From Octopus vulgaris (taxonomy: Eukaryota), in the NCBI GenBank assembly GCA_951406725.2, contig OX597815.1, positions 147,374,001 through 147,438,000 of the forward strand: a stretch of DNA of 64,000 bases, in the 5' to 3' direction. Below, piece after piece: positions 866 to 63,366 of this stretch; position 1 is the stretch's first letter; every line of letters begins with the position of its first letter. A program made the translations under genes and the position numbers. The notes beneath the pieces were generated by a model. That model saw nothing but the letters and a program-made list of their open reading frames with translations. It was not told the DNA's origin and ran no database searches.

Positions 866-1073
866 TTGTGTGTCCGTGTTTGTTCCCCTAGAATTGCTTG
901 ACAACCGATGCTGGTGTGTTTATGACCCCGTCACTTAGCGTTTCGGCAAAAGAGACCGATAGAATAAGTACTGGACTTACAAAGAATAAGTCCCGGGGTC
1001 GAGTTGCTCGATTAAAGGTGGTGTTCCAGCATGGCCGCAGTCAAATGACTGAAACAAGTAACAGAGTAAAAGA
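1..1073 (+). mobile_element. tRNA/CORE-like SINE family A (octopus OR-type), split at its internal (TA)n by a ~725-bp insert; halves at 1-52 and ~846-1073
   Basis: ACCAAAGCCTTGTGAGTGGATTTGGTAG..GAAGCCCGTCG followed by GCTTGACAACCGATGCTGG..CATGGCCGCAGTCAAATGACTGAAAC. Both halves match the uninterrupted copy at 31178-31556 (-). Confidence 0.85.
96..823. mobile_element. Unclassified non-coding insertion in a (TA)n tract
   Basis: Flanked by (TA)n on both sides and separates the two SINE halves. Contains the hairpin CTGCGAAAAG..CTTTTCGCAG (401-433) and a purine-rich segment. Confidence 0.55.
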
Positions 1074-1088
1074 GTATATATATATATA

Positions 1089-1124
<36 letters not shown>

Positions 1125-2028
1125 TGTGTGTGTATGTGTGTGCGTGTGTGTGTACAAGTATGTATATATATATATACTAATTCCTATCATTAGAGCATAA
1201 ATATCACATGTATGCATGTTTGCATGCGTTTGTGCGTATATATGTATGTATATATGTTTACATATGTGTTCTACTGCATATGGGAATCTTGAATATATAC
1301 AACTCAATGTTTTGTATGTTCTTGTTTATATCGCTCTCATATACCCAGACACTTAATTTCCTACATACAGACATGAACTATTAAATACTAACATGGAAAT
1401 ATACATATTAAATTACTTCAACCTCTGCTTCTTTATGTTCAGCTATGAGTCTATGAAAAAATATTTTCTCCATGAATGGGGGTAAATAATTTCATTATTC
1501 TGTCTTTTTCAAATGGAACGTTTGAAGAATTATCAAAGATTACTATTATAATATGTTATCAAAGAGCTTTAGAATCTGTATCTCTACAAAGTTATCTTTT
1601 CATATATTAACAATCAGCGCAAATTCGCTGATCATTTAACTTCTAATCAACAATATTGAATTTAATTCTCAGCTTTTCATGTTTTAGATGTTTGATGGAA
1701 AACTAAACAATAGAGCAAAACAAGTTTCTTTGATCAGAATATTGCCATATTCTGGTATATGTTTAATATTCTTAGTAAGCATTACGTCCTTTTTCAGACT
1801 TTAACATATCGTTTTGAGGTGCCATTTCATGGTCTAAAAGTTTCGGTGTATACTTGGTTTCCGAGTTTAAAGTTGTTAGTTTTCTTATCAAATATTTTGT
1901 CGTATTACATTCTATCATTTTATATTTCGAGTTCAAAATTTGTCTCTAGATTTCATTGTGATTCTGCAAGAATATATTCATGCATATATGCGCAAATATG
2001 CACACACACACCACGTTCGCACACAAAT

Positions 2029-2115
<87 letters not shown>

Positions 2116-2118
<3 letters not shown>

Positions 2119-2215
2119 AACACCCCACGGATTTTTATGGATAACACCATACAAAGTTCTGGTGCATCTAAATTAAGTACCATATTCATTTGAATCTAAA
2201 TTTTTGCTGAATTTA
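2116..2215. repeat. Fragment of a dispersed repeat, reverse complement of ~32126-32222
   Basis: TCTGGTGC..TTAAGTACCATATTCATTTGAATCTAAATTTTTG matches the reverse complement of the 32.1-kb copy; flanked by (TA)n. Confidence 0.7.
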
Positions 2216-4973
2216 TATATATCTATATATCTATATATCTATCTATATATATATGTGTATGTAAGTATGTATGTATGTATGTATGTATATGTGTATGTAT
2301 GTATGTATGTATGTATGCATGTATGTATAATATATTTACATAGACTCTATTAATATATTAATGTTGTCTCTTTTAGTGTGTATCAATTCAATCTGTATGT
2401 GACTTTACCGGAATTTGTATGATACTGGTTAAAAGATCTAACCACCATATAGCGACTGTCAGTTCCATGTTTCCAAAATCCAAGTGTAAGTCCGAAATGC
2501 TTTCTCTCAAAGATTTTGCTTTTAAAAACATTCAAATTCTAGACTACCTTTTAGCAGATATTTCATTCTTTGATATCCATATAAGCAAATTGTTTTTTCT
2601 GCATTCTTCCTTTCTGCCTTTAGCGCAGATATAGACAGGGCAGAAAATGTTCATCAACTTTACAGAATAAACCATTGACGTCTCGAGGATCCCAATGATA
2701 GAATTGCCTCAGATATCGACATAGTCATTGATATTTTCAACTAATATTCAATTATTGCGATTTTATTAGGCAAAAGAAAATTACGCTTTACACCATTTTT
2801 TGAAAGAAATCAACATCAAATTCAGTACATGCGCAAGTCTTTCCTCTTTTCTGGAAATGTTACCTATATATCAACGAGAATTTACTGACGGTATGTGACT
2901 CAATTCACGCTTAAACGGCTGGTGATACAAAAGAAGATAATATTATAAGATTTCATTGTTGAAATGCTATAGTAGAAATGTTGGAAAAAATATTAAATGC
3001 ATTCTAGTATTTAGTTTCACTCCCTTCCCACCTGTTTCAAAATGCCACATAATAAGGATTCGCTGTCTTTCGGTGTGCCAAAGAAACAATACATGAATGA
3101 AAAATTTGAAAAATGCAAAATTCCATGCATCGTTAATTGAAATGTAAATCTACATAAAAACTTGTTAAGCGAGTATGCAACACAACACAATGGATATTTG
3201 AAAAATATGTGATAACAAGTGGACAAATCCACAGTTTACCGTTTACTATTTATATATTTCACAGTAAAAATCTAGTTTCAAAGAGACAATTTGTTGAATT
3301 TGTCATGTAGTTATATTTTCGTTGCTGCTTAAATATGATGGTTAACTGATATTAAGCGTATGGTGAGTCGAGCAACTAGCTCCTATCACGCTTGTAAGAA
3401 AAAATGGTTTTTAAACAATTCAGATAAACATTATTTAACATTTCGAGATATGGAAGTGGCCAACATATAATGAAATGGCTTCAGTCGATCATCCCATGGA
3501 GTTTCTCATTTTGCGTGTGTAACAAAATAAACATTGCGATAATTTGAAGAAATATTTGTTTAAGATATACGACAGTCAAGTTATAAATCTTATGCTAACT
3601 ACTTCAGTATTACAGCAAATTCCACAAATACTTTTAAAACATATCATTATTCATTCTAAGTTATGATTATACGTATGATCATGAATTTCCTCATTGGAAC
3701 ATTACGCTTACAGAAAAGAAATGTTACTATGGAATTTATATTTGCACGTCATAGTTTGAAGAAGGTATATCGAAGAATAATTTCAGAGAGGAATTTTAAA
3801 ACAATGTATTTTTACAATGAAACTTTGTAGATAAAGAAAATATAAAGTGTGATATACAATGAGTTTGATAATGGCAGCCTATATGCTGTTATTATTAAGA
3901 TAAAAAGAAAAGTATCTTGAGAAAAGATCGCAACAGTACCAAGTTAAATTCTGACTTATTTCACAATCAGTCATAATATTGAAACTTGCAATGTTTGAAA
4001 GAATAATTTCTCTGAGGTCATTATTGATGAGAATGTACGTAGCTTGCCTCCACAAACGTGCAGTATTTCCTTCACTTTTCTTCCTTGCCATTTATATTGT
4101 TATCTCTTGAACCACAGATGAATCAAGTGTCATAATTTAATAACAACAAACAATGAAAATTATCTTGAGAATTAACCTAGCAATCAATTGATTGTTAGTT
4201 TTCAATCATAAATATTCATTAATCTTCTTTATTACATGTGTCTTCAATTTTCATTCTTTTTGTATTGTTCATTGTTTCAGTACTGGCTGTTGTTATTCTT
4301 TATCGTTTTCAACTGTGAAATTGCAGAAAACTCTGCTGGTGGCAGTAGTAGTAAAGGTAGTAGCATCAGCAATATTAGTAGTGATCATAGTAGCTGTGAT
4401 AGTGGTAGTAGTAGTAGAAGTAGTTGTAGTAGTAGCTATTGCTGATGTGTTTGCTGTTGTTCATTTTGCTGCTGTTTGGCAATATTTGTCTTCCAGTTTT
4501 ACTATTGTTAAGATTTTCTCTCATGTCAGTTATCGTTTTGAATATACCACCTTATTTTATAAACGGTTTCTCAAGAGCCAGCAAGATTTCTATTCACAAA
4601 ACTTCAAATACAGTCAGTTCTTGAGTAGAATGTTCACTGAGTGACATCTATTTACTCGTTAATCAACAAAGAAGCAGGAAAATTACCACGAACAGAACAA
4701 TAAAGAATATAATACCATTCAAAAATCACTAGTTTATTGAAAAGACTAAAATCATTCCTTCTTTATCTGTAGTACTTATTAAGACTTAGTCTCAATCTCT
4801 GTCTGTTACCCTGCCTCTCTGCATCCTCTTACCCTGACGCTTCGTCACTTTATATATAGATACATCAACACACAGGCACGTATATACAACACACACACAT
4901 ATACGCTGATATATACTGAAGGAAATAGAGATATAGAAGGACAGAAGGAAATGATGTGTATATATCATATGTG

Positions 4974-5023
<50 letters not shown>

Positions 5024-6346
5024 TATATGTACATATATGAATGTGTGTGTGTTCGTGTTTTCCTCTCTCTCTCTCTCTCTGTATGTTTATTCATGTGTGT
5101 GATCATGTACGTGTGTCTAAGTATAAAACTGACTGAAAGCTATAGTTATTCAGTTCATTACAGAGAATTTGTATTTGCAAATTGACAGGTAAGTACTTAT
5201 AGAATAATTAGTCAGTTTGCTTTGTCGATTAGATGTTTGCAACGTGTGAAGCCGCTACAACGTTAGGCATGGAATCTTGTAACTTAGTCACCACGCAAGG
5301 GAACATTTTGGGAGAGTTTGGGAATAAATCATCGTGGGTCAATATTTAATTTTCTAGGTAGATATATAGGTCGCAAGTTAAGCAATTCGGTCGCGATTAA
5401 ACATTCCAAGCTTTTAAATACGCAAATTTCCTGAATAGTATTTACTAGATAAAACGAACTTGACACACAATGTTAGATTGTGATGGCTGTTCCTAGAAAT
5501 CATCGCGAATTATTTCCTGAAGGATATTTGCAATCATTACAAGACACGGATCTCGTCTGACAGGTAAATACTACAACGGCAGGCCACAGAGTGTGAAGAG
5601 CCTTTAACAATACGTCATATTGTAACAAGTAGTTATGTTCGACGTTACTAATCATACGTATGATATAACATTCTGAAGTTGTTTGTTCACCGAAAGATTT
5701 TCAAATGTTAGTCGTACCGTCATTTGAAGTTGTTTGTATAAAAAAGTTTAACATTTCTGGGAATAGAGTCTTCTGTTAATATTGTTCTATGTACCACCAT
5801 CTTGTAATGACAAAAGCTCCTCAGTATGTGTGTGTGCGTGTCATAATGTCAGTAATTGTAGGTGTTGCTGGGATAGGGGCTCATCAATTGTATATTTTTA
5901 GCAGGGGTGTGTGAAGTTGGAAGTAATTTTAGCTCTTTAATAATAGCTAAGAAAACTGGCTGTGAGGTATCAGAATGTTGAGTTCCTCAAGAAATAGGAC
6001 GTTTCTACATATATAGGCGCAGGAGTGGTTTTATGGTAAGAAGTTTGTTTTCCATCCACATGGTTCCAGATTCAGTCCCACTGCGTAGCATCTTGGGCAA
6101 GTGTCTTCTAGTATAGTCTCGGGCCGACCAAAGCCTTCTGAGGAGATTTGGTAGACGGAAACTGTAAGAGGCCCGTTGTATATACATACATATATCCCCC
6201 ACCATCCCTTAGCACCGATGTTGGTGTGTTTACGTCCTCCTAACTTAGCGGTTCGGCAAAACAGACCGATAGAATAGGTTATAGGCTTACAAATAATAAA
6301 CATTATTTAGAATTGACGGATATTTATCCTCATCTTGTTGGTTGTT

Positions 6347-6392
6347 GACACAATGTTTCGGCTGATGTACTATCCAGCCTTCATCAGGTGTC
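6347..6392 (-). ncRNA. Minimal type-I hammerhead ribozyme motif
   Basis: Minus strand reads GACAC-CUGAUGA-A-GGCUG(gauaguacau)CAGCC-GAAAC-AUU-GUGUC. Stems I and II pair perfectly; one G>A change in the ACGU palindrome. Confidence 0.8.
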
Positions 6393-6431
6393 TTGGGGAA
6401 ATTTTGAATTTCCTAAGGTATTTTTCGATGC

Positions 6432-6513
<82 letters not shown>

Positions 6514-6616
6514 TGATCCGAATAATGATAACAACAACTACAACCAATATAATAATAACAATAACAACATCGAAAAATACCTTAGGAATAAGAACCCAGG
6601 TTCGAAACTTCTCCAA

Positions 6617-6662
6617 GATACCTGATGAAGGCTGGGGGGTTTATCAGCTGAAACGTTGTGTC
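6617..6662 (+). ncRNA. Minimal type-I hammerhead ribozyme motif
   Basis: GAUAC-CUGAUGA-A-GGCUG(..)CAGCU-GAAAC-GUU-GUGUC. Intact core, with a palindromic AACGUU in place of helix III. Confidence 0.85.
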
Positions 6663-6853
6663 AGCAAGTAACAAGATGAGGACAAATATCCGTCAAATGT
6701 GAATGATATAAATAATATAAAAAATGTGCATAATTCCACATCTTTTGAATATAGAACATTATTACAAAGAATACGTCGTGTTGTCGATTTCTTAGACTAA
6801 AGGCGGACCTCGAGCATGGCCGCTATCAAATGATTGAAACATATAAAAGAAAA

Positions 6854-6948
<95 letters not shown>

Positions 6949-8843
6949 TGTGCTTGTGTGTGTATTTGTATGTATTTGTATGTATGTGTGTGTATGTGTG
7001 CGCGTGTGTGTATTGCAACATATAAGCTAGCTGCTGTGGGGTGATTAATCCATAATGCTTTCAACTTTTGGTATGTTTAGGTTTCATCGGCGGTTGTGGA
7101 TGCGGATTGAGAATAGGTTCTTTGTGAAAAGATAATTTCCGAGAAGCTAGCTTGTAATGTTTAGCGACATTTCTGATGAACATTAATCTCTTGAATGATA
7201 AATTGGAAAATCTCCCTCTTATAACTACTTTAGAGGCTGCTAATCAGCAAGAAAGTTTTTGTTTTCTTATAGATGTGTATCATCATATTTCACAACATGT
7301 AAGGTTGACACTGAACTATATTGGAATCAAATGTAATATGTAGGAAATTAGATTTAGGTTAGATTGGAGGAAGAGGAAGATGGGAGAGAAAGAGAGAGAG
7401 AGGGAGAGAGATTGAAATTATTTCACTTGAGGTCATTTGTATTAATGTCCGATCGTATTGTACGATGCAGCTCAATCGATATAAATTAGAACATCATATA
7501 CATCATAAACATCGTATATGTTGTGTAGAGGAACATTAACGAAAACATTTAAGAACGGGTCCTTAAAATATGTTTCGTATGTAAAGATATGATAATGGAT
7601 ACAAGACTGTAGAATCAATGAAATAAAGTAAGGAATAATCATACCGAGAAGAAAATGTACAAAAATTTATAAATGTGAAAGACACAATGATTCAATAAAC
7701 AACAGAAAATGAAAGCAGCAACAAATGCAGAACACAGGCTTAGAGTAAAGTTTGAAACAAAATACAATTTGTATTTTCGTTTGACTTGAGCAATGTAGGA
7801 ATAGGAGAAATGATGAGATGAAAAGCGTAAAGTGGAAAAAAAGATCCATTTTCCATGTAATGTTTTTGAAATTACCGCAGAGGAAATGGGTGGTTAGTTA
7901 GAAGACACAAGATAATATAAATTAGATAGAAGCTACTGGATAATGAAAATAGAGGAGGGATGAGAGGCGTTAAACTATAGTGAGGTCAAGTGAAGTGAAT
8001 AACGAATGTTTTAATGCATGGAATAGAACGAGATTTCATAGAATTATCGACGAAACAAAACTAACTCTCTCTCCACATAAAACATGAAAATTTTATATTT
8101 TCAAAGAAAGGTGGAGAAGGTTAAGATGTGATGCTCTTCTATATGAAACAGAAGAAAAGGGATTAAAATTATATGGCAAGTAATATTTCTTGTAGCACGT
8201 TCGTTAGCTTATGAACCACGTTCGGGAAATATATAATTTTTTACCCGCTTCTTTATTGAAATTCACGAGAGAGAACGTTAATGTTGGCAACAAAATATAT
8301 TATTGTTCTCTTGATGAATTTAAAATATTCAACACATATAAAGTAACATTAAAAATGGAGTTCATCATTAATGATAGTCATTCGTTGTCATGTTGTTTAT
8401 ACATTGGGTAAATATCAATGTCATTAAGAGGGACTTCTTCTGACATGGAAGAAAAAGTCTATAACTTAGAACTGCGTTACTCGCGCAGTTGTAGACGATT
8501 GTTGCGCATTTCTAATAAACTAGGAAATATTTAATGTATTCATGTGTGGCTGAAGTACTGTGTCATTCAGTGTCAAAATTGTTTTTCAAATTTTTAATGC
8601 TATAATTCTTTAGATGCCAGACATATTTAGAAAATGTGCTTGTAGTACATTTTAAATCTTGGAGTAGGCCCTGTGAGAAATAATGAGTACTGTAGACGTA
8701 GGCGTGTTTTGAGGCTGTGTTGAGAAAGAGAGTGTCAGAGAGAAAAGGACATGAAACAGCGTTAAGGGGTTCACTTGATTTCCTTTGTTAGATAAACAGA
8801 AGATCTTGGTCATCAAAAAACTTTACGTAATTTTGTAGAAGCT

Positions 8844-8878
<35 letters not shown>

Positions 8879-10847
8879 TTGCCTTGTGAGTGAATTTGAC
8901 AGGCGGAAATAGTGTGGAAGTCTCTCTGTATTAAAGACTTTGAAACAAATACTAAATGCTTTGTAGGTGTTGAGCTTTCTATTGTTCAGATGCGCTCCTG
9001 TGATTTCAATGCCAGCAAAACGACGTCAGTTATTTTCTTTATATTTTAGTCACCTTTGCGGACATGATTTTGGCAGGAAGTTTGGGGTCGCATTCAGTAG
9101 CTGCAGTTTACTATTTTCAGTGACTGAACATGATATACCCAGCAGTATTGGGTACAACACGTAGTGGGGTGGACAACATGAATCATCGCCTATGTGTAGG
9201 TCCACCCTCACTCTCTTCAATGACATCACAAGACTCTACATGGGCATAACAGCCAATAACTAACGGAGCCACACATTACAACAGAGTATATTATACCTAG
9301 TGCCTCTTTAGGCTACAGCTCACTCGCACTAGTGACCCCTGTGAAATGACTACCGTCCGTATGATGTTCAGGTGATACGGGAATGCTCATGGGTACTATG
9401 CCATATGTGGCATAGTACGCCACAGTATAAGGAACTCTTCTTGTTGAATATACTGTGCTGCCTACCTTTTGAGTGGCGTCAGCATACTGGGAACAACATG
9501 TCCACAACCACATAACTATAAAAATAAGCAGTGTCGTGTTGTCCCCGTTGACAAAATATCAATTACATAAAGCAATTCCAAATGAGATTTATTATCAAAT
9601 ATACCATGATTTTAGTGTGAACTTCCTAATATACCACTATGGCTGTCTTTGATATGGTTTCACTTGTGTATATATATATGCAGGCCACATTCGTTATTTC
9701 CAACTCATTTCCCTACTGAGAAATGCCTGTGTTTTAGTTGCAAATTACTTCATAAGAAGGATCAGGTCTCATCTGGAATTGTGTTCTGATTTTATTAAAA
9801 TTTTACTATTTTTGTGGACTGTCAACATCACACATCTGAGTCGAATGTTTTTTAATATTTTTCTGACGCTGATTTATATTGATTTGCATTCTACTTTATA
9901 CACAAAACTAAAATACGAAAGAAAAATAAACCAAATTAGAAAACATGTATAATATATGGAAAAATTTAATTTCGTTTTTTCTTAACATACAACATATATT
10001 TCTTAATAGAAAAATTTCGAAAGACCTTCGTTCGTCACATAGTGTTTGTTAATCTTCTCTAGTCCAGAGATTTTTGATGTAACACAATACTATCAAATCA
10101 TCTACTTTTACCTATGAAAAAGAAGAGGAGATGATCCTGTAGGCATTGGAAAACGAATACTTCTGTCATATCTAATATTTAAAATTTATTATTCTCATAA
10201 TGATTTCAAAATACTTCCATCTGTCACACAGCTTCGCTAACCGTCACGAGTTCAGAGATAATACTTATACAAAACTATCAATATAAGAAAATAGAAAATG
10301 ATAAGTAAACATAGAGAAATACGAAGTCTATGCTGTGCGGTGAATTTAATGACCTGAGTGGCGTGTAATACCCTACCAATCAAAACAAATTAAACGTCTA
10401 CATTTTAGACATTCCTACATAATTTAGATAATAAATAGGTATTAAATTTATGGCGTAAATATTTCCCCATTCTTATGACAAGGTGATTTCGAAAATTCAT
10501 CAAACTTTCAGTCGACTGCAAAGACAAGTTATCTTATATAGAACTTACATAAATGTTTTAATTACTCATACCAGTTCATTGAAGGTAGACGTGTAGTCGT
10601 GTGTGGTAACCCCCGTTGGCAATCAATCTTTTTCTCTGTCATGTCTGTTTAGTTGTTATCTTATATATACTTTTACCGACATAATTACAATTACACATAC
10701 TCAACCTACCAAACGTACACATGTACATATACATATATACATACATACACACGCACTTATGCATACATGCATACGTACATACAAACATACATATACGCAC
10801 TTATGGAGGGACATATCAATGTACACATGTAAGTATCTATCTATCTA

Positions 10848-14877: not shown

Positions 14878-14947
<70 letters not shown>

Positions 14948-14977
14948 TATTATTATTATTATTATTATTACTACTAC
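14878..14977. repeat. (TAA)n directly followed by (TTA)n (self-complementary microsatellite junction)
   Basis: Polarity switches at ~14947. Confidence 0.95.
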
Positions 14978-15804
<827 letters not shown>

Positions 15805-16627: not shown

Positions 16628-17025
16628 GGCGGCCGACTGGCAGAATCTTTAGCACGCCGGGCGAAATGTTTAGCGGTATTTCGTCTGCCGCTACGTCCTG
16701 AGTTCAAATTCCGCCGAGGTCGACTTTGCCTTTCATCCTTTCGGGGTCGATTAAATAAGTACCAGTTACGCACTGGGGTCGATGTAATCGACTTAATCCG
16801 TCTGTCTGTCCTTGTTTGTCCCCTCATTGTGTTTAGCCCCTTGTGGGTAGTAAAAAAATAGGCATTTCGTCTGTCTTTACGTTCTGAGTTCAAATTCTAC
16901 CGAAGTCGACTTGCCTTTCATCCTTTCGGGGTCAATGAATTAAGTACCAGTTACGTACTGGGATCGATCTAATTGAATGGCTCCTCCCCAAATATTTTGG
17001 GCCTTGTGCCTAGAGTAAAAAAGAA
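16628..17025 (+). mobile_element. SINE family B (tRNA head + Meta-like domain), two units in tandem (16628-16860 and 16861-17025)
   Basis: A-box-like TGGCAGAATC.TTAG, B-box GAGTTCAAATTCC, and GTCGACTTTGCCTTTCATCCTTTCGGGGTCGATTAAATAAGTACCAG, which resembles the MetaSINE central domain. Confidence 0.9.
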
Positions 17026-17029
17026 TATT

Positions 17030-18035: not shown

Positions 18036-21000
18036 TGATCCAGGGGTTCCTCAGGAAAATGGATCACCTACCCCGGTGAATGACCAAGTAGTGAAGGATA
18101 GCGGAGCCAAGGGATCAGAAACCGGAAGCCCCCCTGTACCAGTGGTCCTACGAAAAAATGAAAAATTAGAAAAATTAGAAAAACAGAAGAAAAAAGGAAG
18201 AACCGAAAACAAAAATAAGGAGGGAAAAGGAGGAAAAGGCAAGACAACCAAAGCTGAAACCCCAACACACCACACAAACACCAGAGAACCCAATGGAGGA
18301 TCCAATGCCACCCAGTACACTTCAGGAAAGAAGAAATCTGGAAGGCACCGAAGAACCTGTAAGATCTACCTGCGGGCCAAATGTTGGCATGGTTAGGACG
18401 ACAAAGACTGCCGGTTTGCCCACCCGACACACCGCCAGAACTTCAGGGGACTCAAAGAGAAAAAACTTTACCTAGAGAACACAAGAAATGTCTCCAAGGA
18501 AAACTTTCAAAAACGAAGTGCGCTCCTCAGATGTTCTGCGCAACGCAGCGGCTGAGCAAGAGTCTTTTTTATGCATGGCGGAAAGAATTGTCCTGCAGTT
18601 AACCTGGCTACACCAAGCACACAGAAGGAACCCTGCCCACCACTATGCAAGACCACCACAGTCAACAGACACGAGATGGCCTCCCCTAACGCCTGCATAG
18701 CCGTCACCCCAATACTTTTACTAAATATTGGGGGCCTGTTGCATCAAAATAGAAACAAAATTTCTTTCCTGGGAGATCTTATTGCACGCAATCAAGCCCT
18801 ATGCATAGCACTTCTAAAAACTCACCTCAACCCTGATATAGAGGACGCAGAAGTACACATACCAAACTATGCCATACTGCGAATAGACAGAAGGGAAATG
18901 AGCCATGGTGGAGTTGCTGTATACATCCGAGATGACCTCACATCCCAGGTCTTGATGACATACTCAAATTCGGTATGTGACACCTTAATTGTATACATAA
19001 GACGACATAATATAGTCATATGCAATACATATTACCCACCGGAGGCCCCAAGTCACATAGGCAAGTTTGAAGATTGCCTCACAAGAATTAAAGAAATCCT
19101 CATGAATCTGGAACACCATGTGACCATATTTATTATGGGTGATTTCAACTTCCCCAACGTCAAATGGCCGAAGGTCACTTACTCTCAGGAATGAATCATT
19201 GCAAGCAAGTACAGGTGGAGTCCCTGCTCAACCTCACCAATGCCTTATTCATGGAGCAAGTTGTACTCAAGCCAACTAGGGCGAATAACATTCTGGATCT
19301 CTGCTTCACGAACAATATGGACATCATTCATGATGTGAAAGTGACACCGACATCAGTTTCGGATCACAACATAATAGAGCTGTCTATGTTTGGACCGAAA
19401 GTAACCAGAGACATACACCCTAAAAGAAGCACCCGAAATCTCTCCAATCTGAACTTCCACAAAGCAGATTGGAAATCGATCCAAAAAGAGATCCTCAGAG
19501 AAGACTGGCCGGAATGTCTCTCCACACCAGAGATTGACATGAAACTAGAATGTTTCATGTCTTCTGTGCAAGCCGTATGCCAGAAATATGTCCCAGAGCA
19601 CAAGGCCAAAACAAATAGGAGCAAGATTCCAAGAGACAGGAAGATCCTCATGACACGACGGACGAAGGTTGCAAATCGTCTCAACCAACATCCCAAAAGT
19701 AGCGAAACGTCCCGCCTAAAAACAACACTGGTGGAGATCGAAAAATGGCTGCAACAATCCTATGTAAAGGAGAAAGCAGACGAAGAAGCCTGGGTTATAA
19801 AACACATTAAATCAAACCCAACTGCCTTCTTTCATTACGCGAAAGAAACAGTCTCAGCGCACTACAAGATAGGACCCCTCCTCCAAAAGGATGGCTCCCT
19901 CACAGACAGTCCAACTATGATCAGTGAGATGCTGAATGACCAGTTCGAAAGTGTCTTTACCACCCCGTTGGAACACAGACAAGTGAACGAACCAGTGGAC
20001 TTCCTTGCCGCCTCACCTATAACCATCGAGTCGGTTACTATAGAATGTATTGACATTAGCGAAAAATATGTCCTATTAGCCATAGATGAAGTGGACAGAA
20101 ACTCAGCTGCTGGTCCAGACGGTTTCCCAGCCATCAAAGCGTGTAAGCATGCCCTGGCAAAACCCCTCAAGATTCTCTTCCAGAGCTTTCTTGCGAATGG
20201 CAAACTGCCAAGCAAGCTGAAGGAGGGAATAATATGCCCAATACATAAAGGGGGAAGTAGAGCAGATGCCAAAAACTATAGGCCTATCTCTCTGACTTCA
20301 CACATCAGCAAAGTCATGGAACGGATAGTCAGAAAGAAACTAATCGCATTCCTTGAGGAAAATAACTTGCTGAGTAATACCCAGCATGGTTTTCGACCAG
20401 GTAGGAGCTGCCTGATCCAGCTCTTACAGCATTATGACTGGGTGTTGAGGCAGTTACTCAACAAATCAAATGTGGACGTAATCTACCTTGATTTTGCAAA
20501 AGCTTTTGACAAGGTGGATATGCCACAAACTACGTGACCTCGGCATAGCTGGAAAACTTGGAGTGTGGTTGCATTACTTCCTGAAAGATAGGAGTCAGGC
20601 AGTAGTGGTTAATGGAGCCACCTCTATGAACACACAAATAGTGAGCGGTGTTCCACAGGGCACTGTGTTGGGACCACTGCTTTTTATATTGGCCCTCTCA
20701 GATATGCCCTCAAATGCCCGGATAGCCACTCTGGCCAGCTATGCAGACGATACGAAAGTCTCGCAGAAAATACAGAACCCCAGCGATGTTGCACACCTGC
20801 AGCAGGAGTTGGACTCAATCTACAGATGGGCTGAGAAAAATTTCAGGCCCTGCGCTACCAGCATCCAAAACTGAATATTAAACTTACTGGATACACCGGT
20901 CCACAGGGAATTTCAATCCCAGAGCCAAAGTCTGTGAGGGACCTGGGTATCGACATGAGTGATGATACCTCTTTCCAAGTGCACATTACCAGGATGGCGA

Positions 21001-21697
21001 CAAAGTGCAGACGACTGGCTGGGTGGATCCTAAGAACATTCAGAACCAGAGATAAGGAAACTATGATGGTCCTCTGGCGGACATTCGTCCTCAGTCGCCT
21101 GGATTACTGCTCAGAGCAATGGTCACCCACCAGTGTAAAATTAACAGCGGACCTTGAAGCAATCCAGAGAAGATTCACAAAGAAGATCGTCTCTTTGCAA
21201 CAGCTCAGCTACTGGGAAAGGTTGAAACAGCTAAGACTCTACTCCCTGGAGAGAAGACTGGAGAGGTATGCAGTGATATATGTCTGGAAGATCCTGGAAG
21301 GAATTGTGCCAAATTTTGGCATTGTAAGCTACACCAATACTAGAACGGGACGACACAGCATAGTGCCAAAATCCCAGCAATGCTATCACGCTTCAGGACC
21401 AGCTTCTGCAACAGCCTGGGTTTCAAGGGCCCACAGCTTTTTAATATTCTCCCAAAGAGTCTGAGGAACTTGCACAAAGTAGATGTAGCGGTTTTTAAAT
21501 CAAAGCTGGACATCTTCCTGTCAAGAGTCCCAGATGAACCTACCTCACGGCAAGAGGTGCAAATGAGAGTAGCTGTATAAAACTCCATTCTTCACCAAGT
21601 GCCACATATTAGACGAGGTTCGTCGCAATAACAGTGTAGCCCAAAACGGCGGTGTTACAGCATGGTCGCAGCTCTGAGCTGAAACTAGAAAAAAAAA
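18036..21697 (+). mobile_element. CR1-group (CR1/Zenon/Crack-like) LINE, ~3.66 kb, disrupted by frameshifts
   Basis: Cys/His finger region, APE and RT domains, C-terminal SYWERLKQLRLYSLERR, a 3' stem-loop and an A-tail. (TA)n on both flanks. Confidence 0.92.
18571..21630 (+). pseudogene. LINE APE endonuclease-reverse transcriptase ORF, broken across the 18571, 19164, 20488, 20934 and 21380 frames
   Basis: APE motifs LNIGGL, GGVAVYI, MGDFNFP, PTRANNILDL, SDHNII. RT motifs NYRPISLTS, QHGFRPGRSC, YLDFAKAFDKV, SGVPQGTVLGPLLF, YADDTK. Confidence 0.92.
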
Positions 21698-22935: not shown

Positions 22936-23054
22936 TATCCAAAAATTTAACAAATATATATGTTTAAGTGTGAGTGTTTTTATATATATATAAATATATG
23001 TTTTGTCTGAACATATGTACATGAGTGTATGTGTAAATACGTATGCATATATAT

Positions 23055-23490
23055 TCTTTCCTACTCTAGGCACAAGCCCCGGAATTTTGGAGGAGCGGGC
23101 AAGTCGATTAGATTGATCACAGTACACAACTGGTACTTCTTATTTAATCGACTCCGAAAGGATGAAAAGCAAAGTCGACATCAGCGGAATTTGAACTCAG
23201 AATGTAATGACAGACGAAATACAGCTAAGCATTCTGCCCAGCGTGCTAACATTGCTTATTTCTTTACTGCCCACAAGGGGCTAAACGTATAGGGGACAAA
23301 AGATGACAGACAAAGGGATTAAGTCGATTACATCTACGGCAGTCCGTAACTGGTATTTAATTTATCGACCGCGAAAAGATGAAAGGCAAAGTCGACCTCA
23401 GCGGAATTTGAACTCAGAACGTAACGGCAGACGAAATATCACTAAGCATTTCGCCGGCGTGCTAAGGTTTCTGCCAGCTCGCCGCCTTCG
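23055..23490 (-). mobile_element. SINE family B, two units in tandem (23253-23490 and 23055-23250)
   Basis: Reverse complement of the 16628 arrangement, with the same two tail types. Confidence 0.9.
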
Positions 23491-29032: not shown

Positions 29033-29187
29033 ATCTGAACTATGACTTAACTATCCTCTCACACCGTCTCCGATGAAGGGATATTATTAATAAATATCCT
29101 AGAAACGGCTGTAAGAGCTTCAATCTATAAATGCTCTAATATCTACACAGCCTTGGTATTTTTTATCTTATTACGAAAAAAATTCTT

Positions 29188-37419: not shown

Positions 37420-37619
37420 TTTCTTCATTGCCCACAGAGCGCTACGCACAGAAGGGACAAACATCGACCCCAGTGCGTAACTGGTATTTATTTAATTGAG
37501 CCCAAGAGGATGAAAAACAAAGTCGACTTCTGCGGAATTTGAATTCAGGATGTAGCGGCAGATGAAACACAACTAAGCATTTCGCTCGGCGTGCAAACGA
37601 TTCTGCCAGCTCGCCGCCC
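37420..37619 (-). mobile_element. SINE family B
   Basis: Reverse complement reads GGCGGCGAGCTGGCAGAATCGTTTGCACGCC..GTCGACTTTG. Confidence 0.85.
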
Positions 37620-37891
37620 TGCAGTATATGAATATTGATGTGTAAATGATAAATCAAATGATGCCTGGTTTGTTACATTATTATGGAGCTACATTGAGAG
37701 ACGGAGAAATGCAAATCTGAGTGTTTACGTACATATCCTTACACGGAAACAATGTGCACTGCAAAAACACATACACTGACACCTATCTATCTTTCTGTCT
37801 GTCTATATCTGTCTGTGTCTCTCTGTCTTTCAGTATGTAACAAACACAAACACACACACACATATATATATATATATATGATTATATGGAC

Positions 37892-38235: not shown

Positions 38236-38272
38236 CACATGTTTCGACCCGTCGTTCCGGGTCTCTTCAGGT
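38236..38272 (-). ncRNA. Hammerhead-like core (probably inactive)
   Basis: CUGAAGA-GACCCG(gaacga)CGGGUC-GAAAC-AU-GUG. Perfect stem II and ACAUGU palindrome, but a GUG triplet and weak stem I. Confidence 0.5.
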
Positions 38273-39987: not shown

Positions 39988-41639
39988 GGAATGAAAAGAG
40001 AAAACGGATTGAAATGGGGGTAAAAACAGGGGGGAAGGTATGTAGCAAAGTTAGTATCATATAAAGTATTCAAGGAGTTCAAAAAGTTTGGCTATCTAGA
40101 GAACACTCACTCCTACGTCCAAATGTTTCAGTAAGTATAGAAAAGAATTTAAATATTCCAATAATAAAAATACATACATCGTAATTTATCTCCATATAAG
40201 CTAATACTCATAATTTGTCTAATTTTTTTGGCATATATCAAAACTAAGTAACTAAATGTTGTGACGTTGAATTTTTATGTTTATTTTTCCTTCGTTTGTT
40301 ATCTACCGACGACATCGTAAGTTTAAATTCTAAACTGAAGTTTCTTAGAATATTACATTCCCTCTTAACGTTCTTTTTGTATGCGTCCATAGATTATAGA
40401 TGTTATTTCAGTTCGCTTCGAACTTAAGCTGTTTTGCGTTAAATTGACGATATCGTGTTACTATAAATTTTCGGATATATTGATTTCATTGGTATCCTTG
40501 TTTTCTATATTTCAGCATACTGGCACAATGGAAACGGTCTCAATCCAGTATGGTGTGATCCTTAACTGAAGATGTAATATTCTACATTTTGTTCACGTCG
40601 GTATATATATATATATATATATAGTATACAATTTCGTTATATGTAAGATCAACAAAAATGTATTCTATCTAGTGAGAAATAAATATCATTTAATATACAC
40701 ACTTTAAAAAGGAACAGCCATTAATATTTCCATGTTGCAGATATATAATAATTGAGCAGATTTAGTTAACTATTTAAAAACCTGGACGCTTGTTTGTGAG
40801 AAGAACATGAGAAAAAGCGGGAAGAGAAACGTGAAGGTTCATGCAAAATGTGGAACGAAAATAAAGGAAAGATAAGTAAGAAAACCGAGAACCTCAAATT
40901 TATCTTTTGATGACATAAGTTGAGTTATATCTAAGTTAAGTTATATCTCTCTCTTTCTCTTCTTTATTCTACTGCGTTTGTCTATTACATTTAGAGGGCA
41001 TTTTTGCAGTTTTTGAAATCGTTTCAATATAGCATAATTTTGGCCTACCCCTATTTGCACATATGTATTTCATTGCACTTATGCCTCTTGACGTGAATTA
41101 TGGGATTTTTCGATTCATTTATAATGGATGACAGAAGGAAAAATTTCAATATACATGTTTGTGCGTTCGTTTATAGAATACGTCAAATGTGATTTTTGCC
41201 TCATAATTTCTCGAGTACATAAAAAAGATAATTGTATTGGTTTCCATTGTGAATCTCATTGTGAATCTCATGTACGGACGGTAGGTTTTGAAGTTGTGAT
41301 ATATTACATGCAATTCATCTTCATTATAATATATGTTCCTAAAATATAAAATAATACTCTAATATCTGTTCCTGCATATTTTATCTGTTCTTAAAATTAT
41401 TACCGAAAATATTTCGACATCTGAAAGAAAAGCTCTTAAAGGTCTGGCTGAATTTGATTTCTATTTATTGAGATTCTCTGTGTCGAATCCCCTGTGTATG
41501 AGTTGATGTACCGTTTGTACACAAACTTGCTCTTCTAATCTATAGTTCTTTGAGCAAATTTAAAAGTAATCCTTCCAAAATTCATAAAGGTGTTTTGATG
41601 AGATATTTCTTGAAGCGTTGTGAAGATGCTTGACTAAGA

Positions 41640-48828: not shown

Positions 48829-48961
48829 TATATATATATATATATATATTAGTAAAAGGAATTCCAACTTTGTCTGATTTTCACGTTTTATTTACAATCT
48901 TATAATGATATAATTTAATAAAATAAAATAAAATAATAGAATGTTAAATTTTCATGCTGAT

Positions 48962-49006
48962 TGAACTAGTACTTTCATGCATTAAATTCTGCAATCTTCA
49001 GGTTCA
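48962..49006 (-). ncRNA. Type-I minimal hammerhead ribozyme of the Penelope element
   Basis: UGAAC-CUGAAGA-U-UGCA(gaauuuaa)UGCA-U-GAAA-GUAC-UA-GUUCA. Perfect stem I and a palindromic AGUACU helix III. Confidence 0.88.
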
Positions 49007-49415
49007 TGTAGTAGTGGTGACAGTCATGCTTCACAATTTTTGACTGTAGCGAGATGATTAAATCTGTGCATTAAATACAGCTGTGTAGACTCCAGATTGC
49101 TAGGTTTTGCAAACTGTGTTCTGACCAATCAGTGTGTAGTATCACTCAATTACTTAAGCTGATTGGTTGGTTGTGCTGATTGGTTTAGGCGTCACGCTTT
49201 GTTGAACATGTCAAGGGTCTTGTATCTTAACCCTGGCAGCAATTGTTGGGCTATTTTTAGAAATGTTGTAAATAGCCTTTGTCAGGGATTTTTATATTTC
49301 AATTGTCCTCATCATCATTGTCAGAACCTTAATTATTGTTACTAGTGGTGATGGTGGTGGCAATAGGACTTTTAACCCTAAATAAGATCATTTTCCTGCT
49401 ATCTAAGAATTATTA

Positions 49416-50120
49416 TTATTGCTTATTTAGCTTGGGGTCGAATTTATCAATAAAATTCTTTTCTTTGATTTTCCTCTCGATTTCACTTGGGCTGTGTAAT
49501 TTGTAGAAGGGAAATATTATATATATTTTCCGACCACATGTTGCTAGGTGGTTACTCAAAGGTATCTGACGGACCTCTGGGTCTCTACTCTGTTGTCGAT
49601 GTACACGTGAGCGTTCTGATAGTGCATTTCCCGTCTGACCTACATATATTTTTTCACAATTTGGGCATTTGATGCAGTAAATTAAATTTTTGCAGTTCAT
49701 ATTCGCGTTTGTGAATATTTTCCCGGTTTTTGTGTTTATATATTGGCCGGTATGTATGAATTGGCATGTGCCACATCGGCTATCATTGCATTTAGATACA
49801 GTGAATGTTTGGTCTTTGTTGCTAAGGTCAAATTTTGCCTTTGTTAGTAATTTTTTCAAGTTTTTAGGCTGTCTTTTACTAAGAACCATAGCTCGATCCG
49901 TGATTATGTCTTTTAGTTTATTACTTTGAGCAATGATTGGTAGGTTTGCTTTGGCAGTGTTGCAGATATTCTGGTGACATGGGTTGTGTGTCACTATGAA
50001 TGGTATGACTTGTTCTTGTTTTCCTCTTCCTTGGGTTGTCCTAAGTTGTTGTATGGGTATTTTTATAGCCCGCTGTATGCCATTTTCTATAAGTAGCGAT
50101 GGGTATTTTTGTTTGAGCAA
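49416..50120 (-). CDS. Penelope-like RT-thumb/linker + GIY-YIG endonuclease (C-terminal fragment, open frame)
   Basis: LKQKYP, IPFIVTHNP, KRQPKNLKKLL, Cys linker CNDSRCGTC, NLIYCIKCPNCEKIYVGQTG..RSRVHR, ERKIKEKNFIDKFDPKLN. Confidence 0.9.
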   Translation of the reverse strand: MLKQKYPSLLIENGIQRAIKIPIQQLRTTQGRGKQEQVIPFIVTHNPCHQNICNTAKANLPIIAQSNKLKDIITDRAMVLSKRQPKNLKKLLTKAKFDLSNKDQTFTVSKCNDSRCGTCQFIHTGQYINTKTGKIFTNANMNCKNLIYCIKCPNCEKIYVGQTGNALSERSRVHRQQSRDPEVRQIPLSNHLATCGRKIYIIFPFYKLHSPSEIERKIKEKNFIDKFDPKLNKQ

Positions 50121-50165
50121 AAATTCTCTTAGTTCTGTTAGGCGTTGTTCTAATGGGATACTTAG

Positions 50166-50718
50166 ATTGAATCACCCCAGAGAGCACTCACTAAACGAAT
50201 TGAAGGCATGGCTGCTCTCGATTATTGGGATCGCCTTAAAGCCTTGAAACTCTACACTCTCCAGCGTCGCCGTGAGCGGTACATCATTTGTACGATGTGG
50301 AGAATATACCGCCAACTTTTCCCAAACGACCTGAACATTAGCTTCAAGGTTCATCCAAGACTGGGACCACGGGCCATACGTCCCCTGCCCAATTCAAGAT
50401 CACAGCATACATGTACACTACAACATAATTTCTTTTCGTCAACAGCCCTGCCCTATTTAACATTGTCCCGAAAGAGATCAAAGAGGAACATGATCCCATC
50501 AACTTTAAACGGAGTCTGGATAGATTCCTTCGAGGAATACCAGACAAGCCACCCATAATTGGATACAACTCACCCAACAAAAACTCACTACTTGAATGGA
50601 CCATAAACAAAACTTGACTTAAACAAGATTCAAATAATCCTATCAGGTGGTGCTATTAAGTTAGACATGGCCTGGACCAATCTTTGGTCGAAACATATCT
50701 AAGTTTTTTATCTAAGTT
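50166..50718 (+). mobile_element. 3' fragment of a second CR1-group LINE family
   Basis: IESPQRALTKRIEGMAALDYWDRLKALKLYTLQRRRERY..IPDKP; 3' hairpin GACCAA-TCT-TTGGTC-GAAAC; (TA)n follows. Confidence 0.88.
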
Positions 50719-53243: not shown

Positions 53244-53549
53244 GAGAAAGTTATGGTAAAAGAATAGAGCAGGTTATATCATGTATACATGTACATATTA
53301 GAACAAAAACATATTCATAAAGTTATATGCTGATAACTGTACACCCGAACAACAAGCTTCCTTCCCAAGTATATGGATCTGGATTCAGTCACAAATTATG
53401 AGAAAGTTATGGTAAAAGAATAGAGCAGGTTATATCATGTATACATGTACATATTAGAACATAAACATATTCATAAAGTTATATGCTGATAACTGTACAC
53501 CCGAACAACAAGCTTCCTTCCCAAGTATATGGATCTGGATTCAGTCACA
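53244..53549. repeat. Recent tandem duplication, ~150 bp x 2 (period 156)
   Basis: The copies differ at one position that I can see and are separated by a short AT filler. Confidence 0.95.
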
Positions 53550-55075: not shown

Positions 55076-55200
55076 GACGCGCATGCACAAAAACACACAC
55101 ATATATACATATATACACACTCACACACATATATATATATATATTTTTAGAATGTGATATAAAACCAAGGCTGTGAAGATTTTAGAACATTTATAGATAG

Positions 55201-55250
55201 GTCTTACAGCTGTTCCTCCAGGATCTTTATTATATCCCTTCATCGGAGAC
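55201..55250 (-). ncRNA. Hammerhead-like motif (CCGAUGA variant; GAAA decayed to GGAA)
   Basis: GUCU-CCGAUGA-AGGGAU..AUCCU-gga-GGAAC-agcu-GUA-AGAC. Confidence 0.55.
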
Positions 55251-55986
55251 GGTGTGAGAAAATGGTTCAGCAGTAGTTAATTTAGATAAGATACGAAATA
55301 GAGAGTGAAGTCGAGGAATGAAAATCGATGTGAGATATGCAGGGATATTGTATTTGTAAATCCATTATTTAGACAGGATGGTAGTACTCTCTCTCTCTCT
55401 CTCTCCCTCTCTCTCTGCCCCATCACTTAGACTCTATCACTACATACCTGACACTCCTTTAATTTTTATACGTCTATCTCTCTATTACCCCCAATTCCTT
55501 GTATATGTATATACATTTCTCTCTCTTACACCTTCATCTCCCTATTCCTACTTTCAAATTATCTTGACTGACCACTAACTGGTACAACTCTTATTATTTA
55601 TGTCCTTACTTTTCTTTTTTCTTTCTTTTTCTTTATTCTTCTCCTCCTGTTTTCTTCTTTTTTCTTTTCCTTTCCTTTTCTTTTTTCTTTACTCTTCTCT
55701 TCCTGTTTTCGATTTAACCTTACAAATACATTCCCTACTTTTAGGTCATTTTAAATAAAACCCTTGATTCAATAGCACTGTGTAGATACTCTATACTTGG
55801 AATGACCACTTTTAGATACTATTGGATTTTACTCACAAGGTATTGGAATGTTACATGAATACCATCCTGCATAAATAATTGATCTACAATATCGCTGCAT
55901 ATCTCACATCTATTTTCATTCCTCCACTCCACTCTCTAGTTCTTATCTTATCTAAATGAACTATTGTTTAACCATTTTCACACACC

Positions 55987-56034
55987 GTCTCCGAAGAAGG
56001 GTTATAATAAATATCCTGGAAACATATGTAAGAC
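55987..56034 (+). ncRNA. Hammerhead-like motif (CCGAAGA variant)
   Basis: GUCU-CCGAAGA-AGGGU..AUCCU-G-GAAAC-auau-GUA-AGAC. Stem I perfect; palindromic ACAUAUGU. Confidence 0.68.
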
Positions 56035-56644
56035 CTATTTATAAATGTTCTAAAATCTTCATAGCCCTGTTTTTTTTTATCTCGTTCTGAAAAAAATTAT
56101 ATATGCACTCGCTGATATATGACTTACGTTGCACTCTTTATTCGCATAATCACCGAACCTGGTTTATGTCATAAGATGCACGGGCTTCCACGAAAACTAC
56201 ATAGGATCCACGGGATTATCGCTCAGACGCAGATGCACTCTGCATCGACAGCTGATTGTATTCCCAGAATACAGAATGATACCCTTTAGTGAACATATTC
56301 AGAAATGAGCAAAGCAACTCCTACCGCAATTTATAATCTTTCCATTCTATCAATGTGCCATTGGAACACCAACACAAGTTAGATAAAAGAAGGAAATCTT
56401 CTTCATTGAAAAATATGAGCCAAAACTTAACCATTTCTAACATTTTTAAACAGGGAAATTTAACTTATGGAAAAATATATATAAAGAAAAACCTAACCAC
56501 TTCTAACAACATTCTATTCCTTCTTAACCAAATCATGTTAAATTACTGCTACTATTAATATTGCTGCTGCTGTTACTGCTGCTGCTACTACTGCTACTAC
56601 TGCCACTACTACTCCTAATAATAAACATAATAATAATAATAATA

Positions 56645-56993
56645 GACCTACTCATTGAAATTGAGAAAATGTGGCATCTCAAGGCGGTTACAATACCAGT
56701 GATCGTAGGAGCACTAGGAATGATCAAGAAGGGAACCGAAAATTATATGAGAATGATCCCTGGCTTACCACCCCTGCAAGAAGTGCAAAAGATTGAGAAG
56801 AGCATTGTCGATGTGAGAACTGTTGCTGCTCATGTATTTTAATTTAACTTAAAAAAAAAAAATCTTTTTAAATGAACGAACTACTGAGTTTGGTTTAATG
56901 GCCTACCAATATACACTATGAGTTTCTTTGCCCTAGGAGTCGGGAAGATACTCGGCAAGAAATGGAAGAAAATTTGAAAGAAGAAAAAAAAAA

Positions 56994-56994
<1 letters not shown>
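56645..56994 (+). mobile_element. 3' fragment of an R4/Dong-type retrotransposon
   Basis: DLLIEIEKMWHLKAVTIPVIVGALGMIKKG..LQEVQK followed by a 3' UTR; (TAA)n on both sides. Confidence 0.88.
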
Positions 56995-57045
<51 letters not shown>

Positions 57046-57296: not shown

Positions 57297-57487
57297 CTTT
57301 TCTACTATTGGCACAAGGCGGAGAGTCCATATCATCGACCTCAGTGTTTCACTGGTACTTCATTTATGGACCCCGGATGAAAGGCAAAGTCGATCTCGGC
57401 AGAATATAAACTCAGAACTTAGCGGCAGACGAAATGCCGTTAAGCATTTCACTTGGCGTGCTAACGATTCTGACAGCTCGCCGCCTT
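57297..57487 (-). mobile_element. SINE family B
   Basis: GGATGAAAGGCAAAGTCGA..CGTGCTAACGATTCTG.CAGCTCGCCGCC. Confidence 0.85.
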
Positions 57488-60847: not shown

Positions 60848-61944
60848 TAAATAAATAGATATTTTTTAATCAGTAGGTGACATTAATATAATTTTACTCA
60901 AATGCTCTGATAGAGAGAAAAGCAAACACGCCATGTTACATTTCATCTTGAGCGAAAAGCAGTCTGTCTCATAACATGGTGCGTCTTTAGAGAGTATGGA
61001 GATGACAATTGCCTTTCCACTCTAATCTCTCACAGAAAGACTTCAATACTATATGTAAATGAATTGAAGAAAGACCACGTCCAATAGAATACATGAAAAT
61101 TTCAAGACCTCGCTTCTAGCCATCTTGCATTAACACGCTCCAAGAATGATGATTCGGACCAAAGGAAGCGGCAATCCCGAGGTCAAACGAATTGAGAATG
61201 ATCTGCAGATTTAAATGCCCAACGAAGCAATCTTCCACCGTCTTCCAGCGACATCATGGCTGCCAAGCCTCCCAGTTTCCAGGTATCCGTGCTTATTCTC
61301 GATGGTGGACACACGTTCGCCAGATATAACAGCGTTCAACTCCAGTTCACAATACATAGAAAGCTAAGTTACCTACCACTGATCTTGCAACAAGCAAAGT
61401 AACTAGTTAGAAAGTTCCTATAAGAGATGAAAGTACTCATTATATTGACAAGGGATGTTTATCGCCACTTCCTGACGGGTGGTCTGTTGGAACTGATGTT
61501 ACGGCCATTTTTGACTCCTCCAACTGTCTATCAATGCAATCAGTAGCTGCTATTAGATGCAAAAATGTGAGCAAATCCCTACCATCTTCCTGCGAAGACG
61601 AGACCACCAAACCGTCAGGCTACCTGCCATTTGTACTCATCCATACTGGTGAATACCCGTCCGTTAGAAATGACAGTGAAAAAACAAATAACTGATCTTG
61701 CAACCAGTAAAGTATGTATTCTTAAAATCTCTAGAAGAGACAGAAATATTAACTATCCAGGGAAGTAATATTTTTCGCCACTCCAATATGGCCGTTCCAT
61801 AGGAATCTCAAGATGACGCCTTCTCCTCGGGTGCAGATTGCATCGATAACCAGTTGGTTGCAAAATCAGTGACTGGATGTCACTTATTTGTCTATATACT
61901 ACGAGCTGAGGCGAACTACTGCTATCTCTAGAGGACGAGTATAC

Positions 61945-61989
61945 ACTACTGAGGATGAGCATAAATATCTCGAAACATGACGGTATAGT
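61945..61989 (+). ncRNA. Type-I hammerhead ribozyme motif
   Basis: ACUA-CUGAGGA-U-GAG(cauaaauau)CUC-GAAAC-augacg-GUA-UAGU. Intact core; lies between ~30-bp direct repeats at ~61828 and ~62047. Confidence 0.75.
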
Positions 61990-62239
61990 TGTGTCATCGT
62001 TGATTAAAGTTTAGTAGGGGGTTGTTCCCCTACTTGCAAGATATATCGAGTGCAGATTGCATCGATAACTAGCTGGGGGAGGCTTCCCCCTGGGGTTAAA
62101 AATTGTAGTATCGTCACTTCCTACAGAATAACCATGTTGAAGTAGCGATAAACATCACTTCTGAATAGTTTCTACTTTCAATATTTATATACATTTTCTA
62201 GCTAGATATTTGCATGCTTTACAGTATATGCATTTTTAA

Positions 62240-63085: not shown

Positions 63086-63366
63086 ATATATCATTTATAG
63101 CTAATACTTTCATATCTTACCGAGATTTTGTAACTTGATATTTTGCTTGTTGCATGATCTGTGATCGATTTTCACAAATTCTATTTATATATTGTGACCT
63201 GGATCGAACAACGGGTATTTGTAGCGGACGGGTATCCACAACTGCAGATGAGCACAAATGGAAGGAAAACGGGCGGCCTGGTGGTCACGTTGTAGCTTGC
63301 AGATGGTCTCGTCGCCCGTTCCACATGCAATACTCCAGGAGCTCCAACAAAACCTGTGATAAAGAG

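Follow-up and report, generated by a model that had tools for sequence, protein, structure and literature searches.

Within the window analysed here, the whole 64,000-nucleotide stretch of Octopus vulgaris DNA, two inverted arms with hammerhead-like motifs enclose a pyrimidine-rich spacer. The arrangement raises the question of whether such a locus is a closed mobile unit, a DNA transposon with long inverted ends or the trace of a retrotransposon. We consider it probable that the locus goes back to a single ancient, now inactive insertion of a Penelope-like retrotransposon (PLE) with an endonuclease, in which an inverted, 5'-truncated copy likely abuts a direct pseudo-LTR that continues into a decayed GIY-YIG endonuclease fragment. 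The element is larger than the arms and is not a closed arm-spacer-arm unit. Directly observed are the arms, a spacer continuous with the right arm, a continuation to about 56162 and a GIY-YIG fragment in the same orientation (Table 1).

Table 1 Coordinates, strands and assignments of the features at the locus and of the related solo copy in the window.
Feature	Position	Strand	Description
Left arm	55133..55383	-	probable inverted, 5'-truncated copy of the family 3' end (pseudo-LTR)
Hammerhead remnant, left arm	55201..55250	-	C4, GAGGAAC, helix III ACAGCUGU
Spacer	55384..55859	+	pyrimidine-rich; high-copy (by depth and bridging contigs, from 55420 onward only)
Right arm	55860..56104	+	probable distal part of the direct (upstream) pseudo-LTR
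Small type I hammerhead, right arm	55987..56034	+	descriptor match; predicted cut after GUA at 56030
Family continuation past the common arm end	56105..56162	+	tail or start of the next unit
Decayed C-terminal GIY-YIG endonuclease of PLE ORF	56156..56431	+	two in-frame stops
Start of 3' UTR behind endonuclease	56432..56545	+	high-copy; ends in (CTG)/(CTA)/(AAT) microsatellite
Solo arm, same family, 5'-truncated	29036..29184	+	flanked by (TA)n tracts
Solo-arm hammerhead	29066-29117	+	C4

The inverted arms, originally predicted at about 240 bp, were recovered by two alignments. Self-BLAST of the window matched left to right arm at 83.8% over 253 columns (E 8e-72), and pairwise alignment gave 215 identical columns out of 254. 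Mismatches were counted at 27 of 242 aligned positions, 19 of them transversions. Both arms begin at the identical inner base, and the outer end of the left arm merges into (TA)n/(CA)n. The spacer, predicted at about 475 bp, measures 476 bp, begins with a (CT)n tract and is 72% pyrimidine, and the solo arm was likewise found, with 77.9% identity to the right arm by self-BLAST. The window overall is rich in AT and microsatellites. The flanks of the arm pair have only TATATAT in common, and no target-site duplication (TSD) was discernible in its TA-rich flank. A head-to-tail direct repeat of the arm, a trait of retrozymes, was not found at the locus.

The window holds further inverted pairs. The original prediction had stated that the arms share no obvious sequence with a 6.3-kb element, which we took to be the inverted pair at 6302-6707 (6.3 kb being a position, not a length), and this was borne out by a best local score of 18, equalled in 85 of 200 shuffles. 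In the pair itself, a (TTA)n/(ATA)n centre is flanked by canonical CUGA hammerheads at 6387 (-) and 6622 (+). Another inverted pair (61391-61677 and 61918-62216), the third in the window and an old one, is 64% alike, keeps its hammerhead in the right copy only (61949, +) and has related pieces at 63105-63307. Separately, a near-perfect 150-bp direct duplication (99.3%) lies at 53244-53549.

Each arm had been proposed to contain an outward-facing hammerhead of the form GUCU-CCGAnGA, stem II, GAAAC, GUA-AGAC. The outward orientation and the GUCU-CCGAnGA segment are present, the latter in all three copies including the solo arm, and the full form applies to the right arm only. In the left arm, a 2-nt insertion produces GAGGAAC, so that the GAAA box is lost and the core is broken, and the solo copy ends in GUA-AGAG, with AGAG in helix I. 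Position 4 of the core is C in 3/3 copies, as predicted, and the sequences thus deviate from the core CUGAnGA/GAAA/UH at U4 in every copy and, in the left arm, also by the missing GAAA; in the right arm and the solo copy every core letter except U4 is in place. The right-arm motif combines a 4-bp helix I, CCGAAGA with C4 at 55992, GAAAC and the palindrome ACAUAUGU. Helix I pairs over 4, 4 and 3 bp across the three copies. Stem II pairs over 5-8 bp, albeit with a purine-purine closure (A/G in either arm, A/A in the solo copy) that differs from the canonical G10.1-C11.1 in all three. A palindromic helix III is present in the left (ACAGCUGU) and right arm, whereas ACGGCUGU of the solo copy self-pairs only via G-U wobbles; the helix III self-duplexes of the three copies were calculated at -9.0, -11.7 and -11.7 kcal/mol.

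A relaxed type I descriptor yielded five matches in the window, the right arm and the solo copy among them; each of 200 block-shuffled windows gave no match. It missed the left arm because the GAGGAAC insertion breaks the core. An Rfam scan of the window returned no hammerhead at E<=1 among 124 matches, nearly all of which were microsatellite look-alikes of miRNA models, and monomer folds were not better than those of shuffled sequences (z +0.87 to -1.71, 6 folds). The Rfam miss and the poor monomer folding are expected, as the motifs are of the dimer type. They would represent the usual small type I hammerhead of PLEs with a palindromic helix III, predicted to be active only as a dimer. CpG decay was considered as a source of the stem II and C4 letters, set beside the prevalence of transversions among the arm differences. 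Judged by its letters, a hammerhead that has C4 and two opposed purines closing stem II would likely be slow, protein-assisted or vestigial. Isolated CUGA hammerhead-like motifs also occur at 38270 (-) and 38877 (+), the latter minimal and without loop 3.

The boundaries of the original prediction turned out to be wrong on the right side, where family sequence does not stop at 56104 but extends to about 56162, with the PLE endonuclease fragment coming next. A search for Penelope ORFs linked to the arm had been suggested; it was successful insofar as the GIY-YIG fragment lies about 50 bp outside the predicted coordinates, but no N-terminal ORF matched the arm. With the PLE ORF remnant at 49419-50171, the fragment shares 40.9% identity across 93 aa (E 2e-16). 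It is 76% identical to protein P0001 (E 9e-43), the sole match among 8 candidates, and shares 59/92 residues (64%) with P0002, whose domains are RVT_1 (E 1e-7) and GIY-YIG (E 6e-4, under the curated cut-off). Pfam gave a weak match (E 0.008) for a 50-aa piece of the fragment. Altogether, 88 of 90 retrieved proteins match 56150-56434, and none of the 90 matches the arms or spacer at E<1e-3.

Among 1848 candidates, 89 longer proteins were found to be relatives of P0001, nearly all with a reverse transcriptase (RT) and/or a GIY-YIG domain; bivalve entries among them show 42-47% identity. Ahead of its endonuclease, P0001 carries a CX4CX2C linker that is invariant in 16/16 aligned relatives. A linker of the CX2-5CxxC type is a mark of Neptune/Nematis elements and has been proposed to bias insertion to microsatellites (PMC8557442). 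The clade is thus probably of Neptune/Nematis type, as judged from the linker motif of the relatives, the linker being deleted at the locus itself. Unlike in P0002, the reverse transcriptase domain is absent at the locus, and the copy is deleted and not autonomous. No downstream pseudo-LTR or third arm was found in the window past 56545.

Other PLE remains were noted in the window. A 5'-truncated PLE at 48830-50171 (-) comprises the linker and GIY-YIG end of the ORF (Pfam E 7e-6) and a UTR of about 590 bp and ends in (TA)n; its hammerhead-like motif at 49001 has a stem II closed by U opposite U, as is also seen in L002, one of the loci described below. A very decayed PLE RT/thumb fragment lies at 40978-41325 (-; tblastn E 1.5e-5). 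Retroelement pieces are embedded within (TAA)n at 56648-57043 and 14925-15494. The former occupies the place expected for the downstream end of the PLE; its short ORF (56648-56830) has no Pfam match and presumably resembles the end of a Dong/R4-type LINE. SINE-like repeat copies, which resemble octopus tRNA-derived SINEs, are located at 16628-17028, 23051-23486, 37461-37647 and 57324-57487; two of these copies form an inverted pair on either side of a decayed APE-RT LINE (18556-21464).

The adjoining endonuclease fragment is in line with the original view that the element is retrotransposed and linked to Penelope. A MITE or foldback DNA transposon with TIRs of about 245 bp and an incidental likeness to hammerheads would account for the long inverted arms, the TA-rich flanks, the lack of an intact ORF, the Rfam result and the unremarkable monomer folds, and we agree that a MITE finder could mislabel the element. 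We nevertheless regard this explanation as exceedingly improbable. The descriptor found nothing in 200 shuffles, the solo arm is truncated on its inner side, and the locus holds no transposase-like ORF. In place of TIR ends with a fixed TSD and no tie to PLEs, an undefined TSD and an asymmetric run into a PLE endonuclease were found. A MITE or TIR transposon is largely ruled out by the passage of family sequence through the right arm into the PLE ORF remnant.

Parts of the stretch are contained in 20 of 24 listed public sequencing runs, under 6 organism labels. Contigs from four of the 24 runs, X2, X5, X6 and X12 (organism labels A, A, B and E), were aligned at 80% likeness to 55420-56540, a range with the left arm outside, and 3664, 616, 4425 and 3191 contigs matched, respectively. 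Depth was present in 28 of 30 bins in 4/4 runs, the two empty bins being repeat skipped by the tool. In the DNA runs, the summed depth came to about 1,000-23,000 where the spacer begins and 12,000-129,000 further into it. It reached 60,000-414,000 over most of the right arm and 18,000-438,000 at 56104-56445, followed by 1,000-9,600 beyond 56445; single listed contigs there had depths of 25-85. Spacer and right flank are therefore repeated DNA, contig depth not being equal to copy number. Run X5 is RNA only by guess and so gives no information on expression.

Contigs bridge the spacer and the right arm (X5 record 17, 55707-55926; X12 record 2, 55780-55965), and we infer that the spacer is 3' UTR or the upstream part of the direct pseudo-LTR. 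Many contigs loosen just past 56076, and the consensus stops at an A-run near 56100, where 31 contigs in X2 and 32 in X6 have loose ends with an agreement of about 0.7. The left arm and the solo copy likewise end at this A-run. A further 36, 44 and 36 contigs of the DNA runs match up to 56162 and then share a different sequence. The junction of arm and endonuclease is spanned by X6 record 26 (56027-56222, 2 differences), the only near-identical contig listed; the junction is therefore not an assembly slip, and the contig probably stems from the same locus. None of the listed contigs unites the endonuclease fragment and the hammerhead arm in a single family.

These data bear on the possibility that the locus is a dedicated, non-autonomous, PLE-dependent arm-spacer-arm unit that moves as a whole, with the endonuclease fragment as a separate PLE insertion. 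The shared inner base of the arms, the missing pseudo-LTR downstream of the endonuclease and a junction that is not the usual continuation of the family would all fit such a unit. Yet only on one of its sides does the spacer form continuous family sequence, the right arm goes 58 bp further than the end of the left arm, and a solo truncated arm exists. Furthermore, among the 15 joints listed out of 53, only two join opposite strands (55887/56017 and 56035/56090, each from a single contig), and these lie elsewhere and not at a fixed position, with the left arm lying outside the aligned range. On balance, we judge a dedicated unit unlikely.

Ten listed arm positions set the right arm apart from the family majority, and at nine of them the left arm agrees with that majority. 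At 55866, however, both arms carry C, compared to T in 97-100% of the family depth. This common minority letter speaks against a chance neighbourhood of two copies of one family that inserted independently, facing opposite ways at a distance of 476 bp. The same holds for the fact that the inverted copy directly adjoins the beginning of the direct one, in an arrangement that is a common PLE product. The 27 arm mismatches and the great abundance of a family that prefers microsatellites, with the solo copy 26 kb off, could be explained by separate events, but we give this scenario a very small probability.

The same contigs inform on the hammerhead letters of the family. Helix III has the family form ACAGCUGU, with G at 56025 and C at 56026 in 97.5-99.8% of depth in 4/4 runs, and ACAUAUGU, as read from these letters, is a rare or locus-specific form. 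Covariation of the palindrome, for which a test had been suggested, was rejected on these frequencies. In a DNA palindrome, a symmetric double change can come from templated correction; the double change is explicable in this way and is therefore no evidence of selection. For the core, 44-114 contigs per run span 55995, and T at 55992 does not appear among the 40 best-supported differences. C4 is thus very likely the majority letter of the family, and some U4 minority is possible among the 226 differences beyond these 40. Of the proposed fixation of U4C, the majority part is upheld, whereas fixation itself is not proven by the 40 best-supported differences. In X6, 21 contigs with loose ends have C at 56017 (agreement 0.71), which would render stem II all G-C while the extra G before GAAAC stays; this counts against the ancestral stem II having been abnormal.

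Under the preferred reading as a single PLE insertion, PLE biology suggests that the PLE protein would have nicked an AT-rich/(TA)n target. Target-primed reverse transcription may then have started inside the RNA near 56100, as the left arm, the solo copy and many contigs end there. The inverted arm would have been copied in the same event and off the same template, given the C at 55866 in both arms, a single site that could instead mark a subfamily. A deletion, or a jump between templates, at about 56155-56163 would have removed the greater part of the ORF; the downstream pseudo-LTR may later have been lost or displaced. Counting against a single insertion, the UTR ends at about 56545 without a third arm, and a fresh retro-insertion should retain its 3' end; the GIY-YIG fragment could also stem from another PLE, inserted into the tail.

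The architecture as such is ordinary and corresponds to a textbook PLE insertion. In typical PLEs, an inverted 5'-truncated copy lies beside the upstream pseudo-LTR, with a tail of 30-40 bp, and a microsatellite bias hides TSDs (PMC8557442, Craig et al. 2021). An internally deleted PLE derivative with inverted pseudo-LTRs has been described in Adineta (PMC3846280, Arkhipova et al. 2013). An inverted truncated copy is thus a standard product of PLE insertion (PMC8557442, PMC3846280), and every PLE family makes such arms, so that the original suggestion that the design has arisen repeatedly is not supported. The recurring inverted arms in the window are one known mechanism acting on several families. 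With endonuclease-bearing PLEs of the Neptune/Nematis type, the locus has in common the inverted copy, the extension past the common end, the C-terminal GIY-YIG domain and the microsatellite targets; the CX4CX2C linker is shared by its nearest relatives, and internally deleted derivatives are also known in that group. The hammerhead in the pseudo-LTR, another trait of these elements, is a variant in the right arm and the solo copy and broken in the left arm. The locus differs in that the RT is gone, the window contains no downstream pseudo-LTR and the extension is about 58 bp compared to 30-40 bp.

Hammerhead pairs on opposite strands have been published for PLEs at distances of 100-700 bp (PMC4209133, Cervera and de la Pena 2014), compared to about 740 bp here. 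Minimal PLE hammerheads have a short helix I, a long helix II, a palindromic loop 3 and low activity (PMC4209133). Those of metazoans resemble the motifs at the locus in the 4-bp helix I, the long helix II, the nucleotide after A9, the palindromic 15.2-16.2/loop 3 and the dimer-type architecture. In contrast, the locus has C4 instead of U4 and A opposite G instead of G10.1-C11.1, neither of which is mentioned in the main text examined (PMC4209133). U4C is a natural viroid variant with considerably lower activity in vitro and retained infectivity; U-U mismatches at 10.1/11.1 occur as well, and palindromic stems III are common (PMC3088659, Perreault et al. 2011). The core change is the same, but in viroids it is a variant, whereas here it is the apparent majority form of a high-copy animal family. 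Single changes in the CUGA turn lead to low activity (PMC9901934, Roberts et al. 2023). Animal non-LTR retrozymes are alike in their type I hammerhead, PLE kinship and non-coding arm (PMC7229834; bioRxiv 10.64898/2026.07.22.740005); they are head-to-tail tandem repeats, in contrast to the inverted pair and ORF remnant seen here.

An internal start of reverse transcription and AT-rich targets have been described for PLEs, and hammerhead mutants of an anole PLE left insertion unaffected, with cleavage requiring protein (PMC11167929, Frangieh et al. 2024). As cleavage was not needed for insertion in this one PLE tested in vitro, a slow hammerhead might be tolerable to the present family. The literature searched contained no report of U4C in PLEs, which earlier work on PLE hammerhead variants may cover; the available parts of the review PMC3376415 yielded no U4C passages, and those of the octopus repeat annotation PMC13282606 do not mention hammerheads.

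Searches of other sequence sets were also performed. Exact arm motifs had no matches in metagenome contigs or in viral contigs, and protein-led locus searches returned 70 and 12 stretches from these sets, respectively, none of which was confirmed. Nine loci (L001-L009) with PLE-type ORFs, 28-44% identical, came from assemblies labelled as prokaryotic and are probably host contamination. In five of the nine (L006 and L007 share a contig), a hammerhead-like motif was found; it has U4 and never C4, and in no case does it resemble the arm. Within this set, L006/L007 contains tandem units of 3083 bp that carry canonical hammerheads, and in L009 the ORF is preceded by a palindrome of 441 bp.

Taken for the family as a whole, it is conceivable, and we put it forward only tentatively, that a PLE family at very high copy in several related species has a fixed U4C together with a purine-purine closure of stem II. 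Such a combination is a modest curiosity, U4C itself being a known variant. In annotation, loci of this kind are readily mistaken for MITEs, and the hammerhead of the family escapes both Rfam and standard CUGAnGA descriptors. If true, the combination would make this the first animal retroelement whose hammerhead carries U4C throughout the family, and nature would thereby provide a test of whether the protein of the element rescues PLE hammerheads or whether these are dispensable relics. Should C4 truly be fixed, the family would put a natural variant at hand for addressing the function of PLE hammerheads.
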